A stretch of DNA of 64,000 bases, taken from the NCBI GenBank assembly GCA_002372315.1, contig DFFU01000008.1, positions 12,014 to 76,013 of the forward strand. The letters run 5' to 3'. Positions 37,179 through 43,756 of this stretch are shown here, one piece after another. The notes beneath the pieces were generated by a model. That model made no database searches, was not told the origin of the DNA, and saw nothing but the letters and a program-made list of their open reading frames with translations. Each line of letters opens with the position of its first letter. Position 1 is the stretch's first letter. The stretch comes from Alphaproteobacteria bacterium UBA3768 (GTDB lineage Bacteria; Pseudomonadota; Alphaproteobacteria; CAAHEQ01; UBA3637). A program made the translations under genes and the position numbers.

Positions 37179-37207
37179 TTGACCTCATGAAAATTTTGCG
37201 CTATAAT
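37179..37207 (+). promoter_or_regulatory. Sigma70-type promoter of tRNA-Leu
   Basis: TTGACC, 17 nt, TATAAT, about 21 nt upstream of the mature tRNA 5' end. Confidence 0.5.
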
Positions 37208-37228
37208 TACTCCGCTTTCAGTTCACGT

Positions 37229-37315
37229 GCGGATATGGCGGAACTGGTAGACGCAACGGACTTAAAATCCGTTGGGGGCAACCCCGTGCCGGTTCGATTC
37301 CGGCTTTCCGCACCA
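37229..37315 (+). tRNA. tRNA-Leu (anticodon UAA), type II with long variable arm
   Basis: Manual fold: acceptor GCGGATA/TTTCCGC (one T:T mismatch at 6:67), D-arm GCGG..AACTGGTAG..ACGC, anticodon stem ACGGA/TCCGT with loop CTTAAAA, long variable arm, T-arm GCCGG-TTCGATT-CCGGC, and an encoded CCA. Confidence 0.85.
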
Positions 37316-37412
37316 ATTAAAAAAGCTTGAAATCTAAGCATTTTAAATCAAGGTCAAAGTTTATCTTTGGCCTTTTTTGTTTTTGAAAAACACTTGCGTA
37401 TCAATAGTTTAT
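37291..37412. repeat. Left direct repeat (tRNA-Leu 3' end + downstream terminator), attL-like
   Basis: About 120 nt that is about 90% identical to 43634-43756, as read from the sequence. Includes the hairpin AGGTCAAAG..CTTTGGCCT plus a T-run. Confidence 0.75.
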
Positions 37413-37447
37413 ATTGGTTTTGTTTAATTTTTATAAAAGGGCAAAGT

Positions 37448-37883
37448 ATGATGAAAAACCGTGATGCAAAATGTGATGCGCACCAAAATTTGCGACCAAT
37501 CCATTTATGGTTGCGAGAAAACATTTTTTATTGTAGAATGGAACTACCACGAATGGATGGAAAAAGACGGTATAAGCGAATTTCATTGCATACTGATAAT
37601 TACTATAAAGCGAGGGAAATGATGAAGCAAATTAACCAAAACCAACCTAATGCTTTGATGGATAAATTACATTTCCTATACAATCAGTTGATTTTTGATA
37701 CAGAAATTATCGTTGATGGTCTTGCCAGGTTCCTGTGGAATGGCGCGTCAGATCAAAACACTATCAAAGCGTAATAATCCTGAAACTCTTCGCGATTTGC
37801 TTGAAACATATTTAAAGATTGAAGCGGAAAGAAATGAACAGCTGCGTTCTGAATTTAGATTTTTGTTAGTTAATTCGGCTTAA
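37448..37883 (+). pseudogene. Remnant of a P4-type tyrosine integrase (N-terminal arm-binding domain only, broken frame)
   Basis: The segment LRENIFYCRMELPRMDGKRRYKRISLHTDNYYKAREM resembles the DUF4102/arm domain of P4-like integrases (pattern W.FRY...GK.....SLG.YP..SL..AR). The ORF stops after about 110 aa and continues in another frame (37695-37883) with no catalytic domain. It sits immediately 3' of the tRNA. Confidence 0.35.
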
Positions 37884-37975
37884 AATCAACCAAATTTTGA
37901 ACAGAAGTATATTGTAATTCAAAAAAATCAAACATAGGATTGTTTTTTTATAACTATTTGATATAATATTTTTGT

Positions 37976-41784: not shown

Positions 41785-41792
41785 ATGGAATC

Positions 41793-42608
41793 TTAATCAT
41801 CACACAAGGCAGCGATTGCTTCAGCATCTGTTTGAAAATATTCTGATGAGGCACTACAATTAGAACAGCTCGTAACAACATTTGCAGTATACTCGTTGTC
41901 GTATCTCCAAATCGCACCAGATATACAACTATAAGCGCTCCAACCATTATCACATAAAGCAGCAAGTGCTTCAGCATCTGTTTGAAAATAACCCTCCCTA
42001 TCAAATTGGGTACCAGCTACGTCCACCAGACAGTTATTACACCCCGACACTTCTGAATCGTCGTATTTATTATAAAGAATCCCCGCATCACATTCATATT
42101 TTTTCTTTCCATTTTCACAATTAACATTTCCTTCGCATGAAGGGGTTCCTGCTGGTGTTTCTCCCAGCGTGACAGTCAGGGTATATCCTGTGGCAGGGGA
42201 TGTGGCGGCGGTGCAATCACCCGCTTTATCCCCCAATTTTGTTTTTACTTGTTTACAGATAGTTTCATCCTCTATATTGACATCCAATGTTGTCTTATCA
42301 CCCTTATAGGTAATGCCTCCACATCCGCTAGGACGCATACTTGCACCAAATGCTGTATCAAATGTCAATAAGCCTGTTCCTTCACCAGTATTTTGGGTCA
42401 ATCCCATCATATAGAGCATAGATGTCGCATTAAGAATCTCATTGGTTCTATGTGAGCGCATAGCGGAAGTATACCCTGCAATTCCACCCACACTCAAAAC
42501 ACCAATGATTGCCAGAACGCCCAGCATCTCTATCATGGAACGACCACATTCATTGGTCAGCATTGTTGAATTCATTATTTGTTGTTTTTTGTATCTAAAT
42601 TGGTTCAT
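41793..42608 (-). CDS. Type IV pilin-like protein, long-leader paralog with Cys-rich tandem-repeat C-terminus
   Basis: The class III signal ...NECG|RSMIEMLGVLAIIGVLSVGGI matches pilin 1 exactly at the protein level over 22 aa. A strong RBS GGGAGGAAAGGG precedes the ATG at 42608, giving a 22-aa leader; an internal ATG at 42563 would give a 7-aa leader like pilin 1. The C-terminus has a duplicated YFQTDAEA(L/I)AALCD module, matching the DNA direct repeat at about 41800-41846 and 41954-42000. Confidence 0.7.
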   Translation of the reverse strand: MNQFRYKKQQIMNSTMLTNECGRSMIEMLGVLAIIGVLSVGGIAGYTSAMRSHRTNEILNATSMLYMMGLTQNTGEGTGLLTFDTAFGASMRPSGCGGITYKGDKTTLDVNIEDETICKQVKTKLGDKAGDCTAATSPATGYTLTVTLGETPAGTPSCEGNVNCENGKKKYECDAGILYNKYDDSEVSGCNNCLVDVAGTQFDREGYFQTDAEALAALCDNGWSAYSCISGAIWRYDNEYTANVVTSCSNCSASSEYFQTDAEAIAALCDD

Positions 42609-42857
42609 TTACCCTTTCCTCCCATAATTGTTTATTAATGAACTATCCCCAGTATGACACAAATCAACGATTAAATCAATATATTTTTTTGTCTTTAAAA
42701 ACTTTTTGTCTTTGATGACTCAAACATCAATAAAATCAATATAAAAATAGTAAAATAAATGACTTTAAGACACTCTTTTACAGGATGATTTTTCAAGCTT
42801 AGTCACAATCGTTCTATTAAATAAACAAATTTTAACCACTCAAAAGAAAGGAAAAAT

Positions 42858-43481
42858 ATGGAAGTTTATGGTTATATTCGTGTCAGCTCCAACAAACAAA
42901 CAGTGGCACATCAACACTTTGAAATTCAAAAATTTGCTAATTTAAATCACCTCAATGTTGATAAATGGATTGAAGAAACTATCAGTAGTCGTAAAGCACT
43001 CAATAAAAGAAAGCTCGGACACCTACTCAAAAACCTTCACTCAGGCGATATTTTAATTACCACTGAAATATCACGTCTCGGTCGTTCACTGCTTGAAGTG
43101 ATGCACATTTTGGAAACTTGCCTTAATAAAAACTGTCAAGTATGGACAATTAAAGAAAACTATCGTCTTGGCAATGATATTCAATCCAAAGTGATGGCAT
43201 TCGCTTTTGGTATCAGTGCTGAAATAGAGCGACAACTGATTTCACAAAGGACAAAAGCAGCCCTTGAAAATGTGAAAGCCAGTGGTAAAAAGTTGGGACG
43301 TCCATTTTCTGCTCAATCTAAAAAGCTGAAACTGACGAAAAATACGCGTAAAATCCAAAAACTTTTAAACGCAGGCGTGAGCAAAAATAAAATTTCCCAA
43401 ATCATGGGTGTTCAAAACGCCACCCTCAGACGCTTTCTGAATAGAATGAAAGGTAAAACAAATCCAAAACTTGTACAGTGA
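42858..43481 (+). CDS. Small serine recombinase (resolvase/invertase family) with C-terminal HTH
   Basis: Catalytic-serine motif GYIRVSSNKQ at the N-terminus, resolvase core, and a C-terminal HTH (ISQIMGVQNATLRRFL). RBS AAAGGAAAAA. Confidence 0.85.
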   Translation: MEVYGYIRVSSNKQTVAHQHFEIQKFANLNHLNVDKWIEETISSRKALNKRKLGHLLKNLHSGDILITTEISRLGRSLLEVMHILETCLNKNCQVWTIKENYRLGNDIQSKVMAFAFGISAEIERQLISQRTKAALENVKASGKKLGRPFSAQSKKLKLTKNTRKIQKLLNAGVSKNKISQIMGVQNATLRRFLNRMKGKTNPKLVQ

Positions 43482-43526
43482 TGACTGTTTTAAAGCAAAA
43501 TTGTTCAAAAAAGTATTTATTTTATT

Positions 43527-43756
43527 CAAAATTTGCGCTATAATCCGTCTTAGTTCAGGTCTGTGATGCGGATTGTGATGCTTTTTGGAAATAATCCCCG
43601 AAAAACATAACGGAATCAAGACACGAGAGCTGCGGTTTTATTCCGGCTTTCCGCACCAATTAAAAAAGCTTGAAATCTAAGCATTTTAGATCAAGGTCAA
43701 GGTTTTATCCTTGGCCTTTTTTGTTTTTGAAAAACACTTGTGTATCAACGGTTTAT
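43527..43756. repeat. Right direct repeat: decayed duplicate of the tRNA-Leu promoter, pseudo-tRNA-Leu (intact 3' end ...TTCCGGCTTTCCGCACCA) and tRNA terminator, attR-like
   Basis: 43527-43544 matches the tRNA-Leu -10 region. 43634-43756 is about 90% identical to 37291-37412. The 5' two-thirds of the tRNA copy are scrambled. Confidence 0.7.

Follow-up and report, generated by a model that had tools for sequence, protein, structure and literature searches.

A probable degraded integrative element at the tRNA-Leu(UAA) gene of an uncultured alphaproteobacterium

Genomic islands that use a tyrosine integrase to enter tRNA genes are well known, examples being the P4-like islands and the high-pathogenicity island (HPI) of Yersinia; the arm domain of the HPI integrase is PDB entry 3jtz. 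In phage lambda, the attP site contains arm-type sites, which are bound by the N-terminal domain of the integrase Int (PDB 2wcc). An island of this general kind, about 6.3 kb long, lies beside a leucine tRNA gene, tRNA-Leu(UAA), on contig DFFU01000008.1 of Alphaproteobacteria bacterium UBA3768, of which a stretch of 64,000 nucleotides (nt), here called the window, was analysed. The element sequence covers positions 37381-43633. It is probably a degraded integrative element of a family with a tyrosine integrase at the tRNA-Leu side and an Mpi-family serine DNA invertase together with surface genes at the far end. The hydrogenase gene adjoining the locus groups the window with metagenome-assembled genomes (MAGs) of uncultured rumen and gut Alphaproteobacteria.

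Like the P4-like islands and the HPI, the element sits at the 3' end of a tRNA gene, appears to provide a replacement 3' end that keeps the tRNA intact, and has a direct repeat at its far end. The integrase gene follows the tRNA directly and the composition is atypical; in those islands, too, the integrase is often decayed, which fixes the island. Unlike in those islands, the N-terminus of the integrase matches DUF6538 and not a P4-type family, the block of identity extends 65 nt beyond the tRNA and through the terminator, the far arm has the look of an entire tRNA gene that has degenerated, with a promoter-like block, and a serine invertase stands at the far end. The core of a sequence-only reading of this stretch, namely an integrative element at the tRNA-Leu(UAA) 3' end with repeats of the attL/attR type (left and right attachment sites) and a decayed integrase, unable to move alone, was borne out. 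The coordinates of all features are collected in Table 1.

The repeat finder returned two overlapping families of direct repeats, which jointly link 37290-37465 to 43633-43809. The main repeat comprises the last 25 nt of the tRNA and the next 65 nt, including the terminator, at 92-94% identity, with weaker similarity continuing to 43809. Alignment confirmed the claimed repetition of tRNA 3' end and terminator as real, since its 109-nt core reaches 95.4% identity (E 2e-44). The window contains the 19-mer ATTCCGGCTTTCCGCACCA exactly two times, where 0 would be expected. Identity between the left and right copies changes in steps: 56% from the promoter to the T-stem, 92% from the T-arm to CCA, 94% from the first nucleotide after CCA to the terminator T-run, and 74% from there to the integrase start. 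Terminator hairpins were called in both copies; one base in the loop and a compensatory change from A-T to G-C set them apart. The right-copy terminator does not differ from the native-type one of L115 and L085 (L-numbers denote loci from relatives or metagenomes, 1.7 Mb of fetched sequence in total).

The left boundary of the element can be drawn from two relatives. L101 (Lon 97% and RNHCP 79% identical) keeps the arrangement RNHCP-tRNA-terminator and L115 keeps tRNA and terminator, both without an integrase. They part from the window right after the terminator T-run, where their downstream genes differ from those of the window; the block from tRNA to terminator is therefore native, and the sequence from 37381 onward belongs to the element. 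The structure is not an assembly artefact, because three independent assemblies match the island junctions at 100% (L093 spans 37214-38933, L124 spans 42482-53481 and L125 spans 42507-43669). L123 carries an invertase that is 96% identical at the amino acid (aa) level and the same arm through CCA, including the T-loop TTTTATT, followed by a different terminator and smpB. That one arm adjoins two flanks and breaks off at the tRNA 3' end is as expected for site-specific integration. Since L123 shares the TTTTATT T-loop and diverges after CCA, the crossover can be placed within ATTCCGGCTTTCCGCACCA, that is, in the last ~19-25 nt of the tRNA. From ~37297 onward, tRNA-Leu would have received its 3' end from the element, at attL.

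The integrase that would have carried out this reaction survives as a stub directly 3' of the tRNA, as had been claimed. The stub matches residues 1-88 of integrases of 515-597 aa with 49-64% identity and E values down to 1e-27, and the tyrosine recombinase catalytic domain (PF00589) has no match anywhere in the 64-kb window. The full-length relatives combine PF00589 with an N-terminal match to DUF6538, and their alignment shows the conserved R, H-x-x-R and Y columns. DUF6538 (PF20172) is the only N-terminal match; P0020 passes its cut-off, and the stub, P0001, P0004, P0009 and P0028 match it weakly. The former label of a P4-type integrase arm-binding domain has to be replaced, as no P4-type N-terminal family was returned by Pfam. 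A Foldseek search with the stub gave nothing significant. Full-length integrases stand directly after tRNA-Leu(UAA) in L085 and L118-L122 and after tRNA-Leu(UAG) in L129, and in L094 the 5' end of an integrase gene follows the tRNA at the contig edge. No relatives of the integrase and 0 matches to the repeat pattern were found in IMG/VR; of the island DNA, only the invertase gene matched anything in phage and plasmid collections (Mpi genes of Bacteroidota and one unannotated phage record). Because the integrase is truncated, autonomous excision of the island is not expected.

Decay of such elements at tRNA-Leu(UAA) is recurrent, and the relics in L091 and L113 are even smaller than the one in the window. 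L091 (671-2658) has a short integrase start only after tRNA-Leu(UAA), after which come a gene resembling zeta toxins and one resembling aminoglycoside phosphotransferases. In L113 (12097-12250), the integrase upstream region alone is left at tRNA-Leu(UAA).

The right copy had been described as a duplicate of the tRNA 3' segment. The repeat is there, but it is not a simple one: the copy runs ~85-90 nt past the terminator and takes in the upstream region of an integrase gene with a ribosome-binding site, a mutated start and a few codons, which resemble the integrase start of L085. Positions 43633-43802 are 94.7% identical to L085 2162-2332, and the post-terminator part is 92% identical to L085 versus 74% to the left copy. 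The right copy is for this reason read as the attL-type junction of a second, older member of the family, which suggests a tandem integration followed by deletion. Because the displaced copy runs into another integrase start, closest to that of L085, the tRNA was probably occupied earlier by this older member. The tandem step is counted as inferred, as the third repeat does not survive.

[quoted passage not shown] As in such arrays, the newcomer would enter the site regenerated by the resident, so that the attL of the resident becomes the attR of the newcomer, and the right repeat contains an integrase upstream region and start. Unlike in those arrays, ~90 nt of the proposed resident are left here, the third repeat and the older body are gone, and the array is deduced rather than seen.

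A local tandem duplication could explain the same layout with a single integration. The module from promoter through tRNA and terminator to the integrase start would have been duplicated, through unequal or illegitimate recombination, and its right copy would have decayed, the genes in between being duplicated too or inserted later. Two observations fit such an event: the right copy follows the left module in the same order over its full extent (promoter-like block, terminator, integrase start), and a third repeat is lacking. It is nevertheless unlikely. The identities step from 56% to 92-94% and 74%, sharply at the T-arm, which neutral decay does not predict; the post-terminator part is nearer to L085 of another organism (92-95%) than to the left copy (74%); and L123 has this arm on another flank, the two sequences parting exactly at the tRNA 3' end.

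The reading as a member of an element family draws on contig NODE_2496 (L129 plus L127), a complete relative with tRNA-Leu(UAG), an integrase, a DUF5906 protein, a DUF3768 module, surface-polysaccharide genes, a pilin-like gene and an Mpi-like invertase; the contig ends 58 nt after the invertase. L123 contains the DUF3768 module, glycan genes, the pilin-like gene and the invertase. The element of the window keeps both ends of this layout, as integrase stub and invertase; its middle modules are gone, and two genes of very high AT content have been acquired. This element family is common in gut and rumen Alphaproteobacteria. NODE_2496 (integrase P0009, invertase P0171) comes from sample ERZ12302850, where it has 12.69x coverage compared with 12.57x for a contig identical to the window. 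Because the sample is the same and the coverage nearly equal, one genome may hold both an apparently intact and a decayed element.

The interval also differs in composition. Its guanine-cytosine (GC) content is 31.8% versus 38.8% outside, the minimum among all 6.25-kb segments, and the drop is due to two of the four genes, that of the sulfatase-domain protein (27.8%) and that of the family-41 glycosyltransferase (GT41; 31.5%). The statement of the sequence-only reading that the cargo is more AT-rich than the flanks thus holds for the interval as a whole and for these two genes, but not for the pilin-like gene (41.5%) or the invertase gene (36.9%).

Close homologues of the invertase, with 73-78% identity, occur widely in the clade, its GC content is ordinary, and in L126 invertase and pilin-like gene stand in a chromosomal context without an att remnant. 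The interval might on these grounds be mostly native chromosome, with the stub as the relic of a small lost element, the invertase, the pilin-like gene and the pseudo-tRNA as a single ancestral chromosomal module, and the repeat as the product of gene conversion between two old tRNA-Leu loci. This is quite improbable, since in two other contigs (L123 and L127/L129) the invertase ends a block with the DUF3768 module of integrase-bearing elements, since its surroundings differ in every locus examined, and since the strongly AT-rich phosphoethanolamine-transferase-like and GT41 genes have no counterpart in the locus of any relative.

The segment between the invertase and the right repeat forms the element's right arm. 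L123 carries it at ~95% identity on another flank (smpB), and L131/L132 keep part of it. The block CAAAATTTGCGCTATAAT of this arm (43527-43544) equals 37190-37207 except for a difference of 1 nt in the length of a T-run, with 13 nt (TTTGCGCTATAAT) in exact register. The local alignment score of the similarity to the tRNA promoter and leader is 46, the highest value being 36 among 2000 shuffles and 39 among 144 real-sequence controls, so that the degenerate duplicate of the tRNA promoter claimed to lie upstream of the second copy is indeed above chance. The pseudo-tRNA with a scrambled 5' half, postulated in the same place, is not recognisable as a tRNA. Neither ARAGORN nor Rfam RF00005 calls one at the right copy (43545-43660), identity to the tRNA is confined to the last 25 nt, and the fold shows an acceptor-like stem only. 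The region is instead a conserved part of the element in L123 and in part in L131/L132, and the supposed 5' half is best read as its attP arm. Permissive Rfam matches at or near the right copy (sau-63, MicC, Thr leader) were rejected as noise, being far below the gathering scores. The motif GCGGAT in the right arm was not relied on as a tRNA 5' end; it doubles as the spacer of a GTGATGC pair and is missing from L131/L132.

It is very improbable that the right copy is, instead of a recombination scar, a functional small-RNA gene of tRNA-like type, running from the TATAAT-containing block 43527-43544 to the terminator 43693-43718. In favour of such a gene are its promoter-like block, its intact terminator with the compensatory stem change, its conservation (~95% in L123, at least equal to that of the neighbouring coding sequence) and its fold with an acceptor-like stem (z-score -2.7); against it are the silence of ARAGORN and the Rfam tRNA model, a single Rfam match of 26.8 bits versus a gathering score of 100, a poor -35 region with no site in the promoter scan, a mutated T-loop, the use of another terminator in L123 and the lack of the tRNA 3' part in L131/L132.

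The reading of the right arm as an attP arm finds a parallel in phage lambda. As in lambda attP, pairs of short direct repeats flank the core on both sides (-59 and +146), and they are candidate sites; as in lambda Int, the integrase may have a small N-terminal domain made of a sheet plus a helix. Perfect GTGATGC-N5-GTGATGC pairs are confined to the 5' ends of integrase genes and to right arms, both in the window and in the 1.7 Mb of fetched loci. The pair on the integrase side lies +125 to +150 nt after the tRNA end in the window, L094 and L129; elements of the L085 type have it with two mismatches. These pairs are proposed as candidate arm-type integrase sites on both attP arms. The alternative that the right-arm pair is a relic of integrase coding sequence (CDADCDA) was rejected, its position on the invertase side being unfit for a simple integrase remnant.

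The course of events can be envisaged as follows. Complete elements of the family have an integrase (DUF6538-type N-terminus plus PF00589) at the tRNA-Leu end and the invertase with pilin-like or surface-glycan genes at the other. The present one would have inserted by site-specific recombination in the last ~19-25 nt of tRNA-Leu(UAA). Because it would bring its own tRNA 3' end and terminator, the tRNA would have been rebuilt at attL (37291-37380), and the displaced 3' copy would have become attR (43634-43724). An L085-like element may have entered the tRNA first; the present element would then have integrated into the regenerated tRNA and turned the attL of the resident into its own attR. The older resident would later have been deleted down to ~90 nt, as far as the patatin gene. 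The present element has since lost its integrase past residue ~88 and the replication/DUF3768 module, and it has no integrase of its own for excision. The segment between invertase and repeat would be an attP arm, and the GTGATGC pairs, 59 nt to the left and 146 nt to the right of the core, would be the sites of the integrase N-terminal domain.

Several observations weigh against this account. The invertase and the pilin-like gene have ordinary GC content, and in L126 no tRNA remnant follows the invertase. No third copy of the repeat occurs in the window, so the far end of the proposed older element is unmarked. A simple 3'-end integration would not be expected to give the right arm its likeness to the tRNA promoter and leader. 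The GTGATGC pair at the integrase 5' end also encodes a conserved peptide, CDAxCDA, and its conservation could therefore be at the protein level. No second element with both ends was recovered, the arm interpretation drawing on the window, L123 and L131/L132; within the sequence examined of L085, L091, L113, L114, L118, L119, L121 and L122, no repeat that could serve as attR was found. Finally, no true empty site, with tRNA-Leu beside patatin, was found; the flanks differ in all relatives examined. Because synteny in the clade is scrambled, the element is left without an empty counterpart for comparison.

The extent of this scrambling can be seen around the [FeFe]-hydrogenase operon (32712-36781). 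With hydA as synteny anchor, 80 genomes were fetched and the 12 closest compared. The operon has 77-87% nt identity in these 12, and both flanks differ in every relative; either gene order in the clade is highly scrambled, or the hyd operon itself moves. The operon block is all that the 12 genomes share with the window here, none having RNHCP, tRNA-Leu(UAA), patatin or lon nearby. On the other side of the island, the patatin gene stands in an rml operon context in L133-L135, with no island and no adjacent tRNA-Leu.

Table 1. Features of the island and its borders (positions in the window).
Feature	Position	Strand	Remarks
Promoter of tRNA-Leu, chromosomal, sigma-70-type	37179-37207	+	TTGACC, 17-nt spacer, TATAAT; 11/12 consensus positions
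tRNA-Leu(UAA), intact, integration target	37229-37315	+	ARAGORN; Rfam tRNA model 60 bits, E 2e-11
Left repeat copy (T-arm, acceptor 3' strand, CCA, 3' trailer, terminator; hairpin 37350-37374)	37291-37380	+	same block in integrase-less L101/L115
Element-specific sequence upstream of integrase gene	37381-37447	+	common to L085 and right copy; not in integrase-less L101, L115
Integrase stub, open reading frame of 108 aa, catalytic domain deleted	37448-37774	+	residues 1-88 (37448-37717) match N-terminal domain of ~530-aa tyrosine integrases
GTGATGC-N5-GTGATGC direct-repeat pair, candidate P'-arm integrase-binding sites	37461-37479	+	146 nt after tRNA end; encodes (R)DAKCDA
745-aa membrane protein with sulfatase-type domain, resembling CptA/EptA phosphoethanolamine transferases	37976-40213	+	Pfam Sulfatase 1.4e-35; GC 27.8%
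TPR protein with family-41 glycosyltransferase (GT41)	40204-41784	-	Pfam Glyco_transf_41 6.7e-64; GC 31.5%
Pilin-like surface protein, type-IV-pilin-like N-terminus (GRSMIEMLGVLAIIGVLSVGG), repeated C-terminal motif	41793-42608	-	GC 41.5%
Mpi-family serine DNA invertase, intact, 207 aa	42858-43481	+	Pfam Resolvase; conserved right-end gene of element type; GC 36.9%
Right arm of element, proposed attP P arm	43482-43633	+	promoter-like block 43527-43544, then degenerate tRNA-like body
Second perfect GTGATGC-N5-GTGATGC pair, candidate P-arm integrase-binding sites	43563-43581	+	ends 59 nt before core; same position in L123
Right repeat copy, proposed attR of present element (mutated T-loop TTTTATT, acceptor 3' strand, CCA, trailer, terminator; hairpin 43693-43718)	43634-43724	+	
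Probable remnant of second, older family member	43725-43815	+	integrase upstream region, mutated start codon (ATG to AGG), ~5 codons, then deletion junction abutting patatin stop codon
Patatin-like phospholipase, chromosomal core gene, outside island	43831-44697	-	chromosome resumes; homologues with 60-83% identity in very many Alphaproteobacteria MAGs

The target itself was called as one intact tRNA-Leu(taa) by ARAGORN and the Rfam tRNA model, as had been anticipated. A metagenome scan for its 3' end yielded 37 loci, 18 of them tRNA-Leu(UAA) genes of relatives, and nearly all of these 18 have the acceptor arms GCGGATA...TTTCCGC. The tRNA-Leu of L084 begins with GCGGACG and is likewise unpaired at 6:67. 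The T6:T67 mismatch of the window tRNA had been taken as the sign of a chimeric tRNA. It turned out to be a lineage trait among the 18 loci and is no evidence of a chimera, because it also occurs in loci without an integrase nearby (L101, L115, L096 and L089). The sole conserved neighbour of tRNA-Leu(UAA) is the RNHCP-domain gene (36796-37188), which lies divergently upstream of it in four lineages (window, L101, L089 and L086) in the same RNHCP-promoter-tRNA layout. An exact look-up of the RNHCP protein returned no record.

The four intact genes of the island would plausibly serve to alter or phase-vary the cell surface, judging from their family assignments. For the 745-aa protein, the NCBIfam matches to CptA/EptA are below the cut-offs. 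The gene divergent from the invertase always opens with the same pilin-like N-terminus (window, L123, L126 and L127). Inside the pilin-like gene, a 45-nt direct repeat (41796-41840 and 41946-41990; 89% identical, 150 nt apart) encodes YFQTDAEA(L/I)AALCD. A second pilin-like gene with the same N-terminus is found at ~28070-28310 on the opposite strand. Several short-read assemblies (contig ends of L124, L125, L128 and L122) break inside the conserved pilin-like 5' end (window 42482-42552), which fits a multi-copy or rearranging sequence.

In Bacteroides fragilis, Mpi is described, in an account citing Coyne et al. 2003 (PMC4747536), as a master serine DNA invertase that flips the promoters of polysaccharide loci. 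Like Mpi, the recombinase of the island passes the Mpi-family equivalog model (NCBIfam NF009949; 283.4 bits with a cut-off of 272, covering 3-199 of 207 aa), adjoins genes for surface structures and is 66-74% identical at the DNA level to Mpi genes of Bacteroidota, where the matches are Mpi-family genes on plasmids (Aureispira, Prevotella, Pedobacter). This identity hints that the invertase may have been transferred between phyla sharing the gut. Unlike the B. fragilis enzyme, it has an alphaproteobacterial host, its gene lies at the end of an integrative element, and it is known here from sequence, with weak 12-nt repeats. These imperfect inverted repeats, a weak pair 134 nt apart, lie in 42609-42857 (42661-42672 AAATCAACGATT and 42807-42818 AATCGTTCTATT). 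Their geometry recurs in L126, where the two arms show matching changes (AAACCAACGTTT and AAACGTTCCTTT). Enrichment of the inverted-repeat motif in the window is not above chance. The intergenic segment with these repeats is a candidate invertible promoter.

In itself, the feature, a fossil integrative island at a tRNA gene, is ordinary, and scars of this sort are common in bacterial genomes. Only the family-level pattern, an element stretching from integrase to invertase with conserved arm repeats, has some novelty, and complete examples of it are few. More tentatively, the island can be regarded as the decayed member of a previously undescribed family that targets tRNA-Leu, packages surface genes with a Bacteroidota-like Mpi switch, and has an attP mimicking a whole tRNA gene with arm sites on both sides, a second intact member perhaps residing in the same genome; this wider view is conceivable rather than likely.

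The locus is mainly of value as a clean, well-documented case of mobile elements being gathered by tRNA genes and then fossilised there, in an uncultured lineage from the rumen. Four intact genes, for the phosphoethanolamine-transferase-like protein, the GT41 protein, the pilin-like protein and the invertase, are thereby marked as acquired and not ancestral. The conserved repeat pairs would offer a testable attP architecture for an uncharacterised family of integrases (DUF6538). If the family pattern is true, phase-variation machinery of the Bacteroides type would spread among gut bacteria on islands that target tRNA genes.

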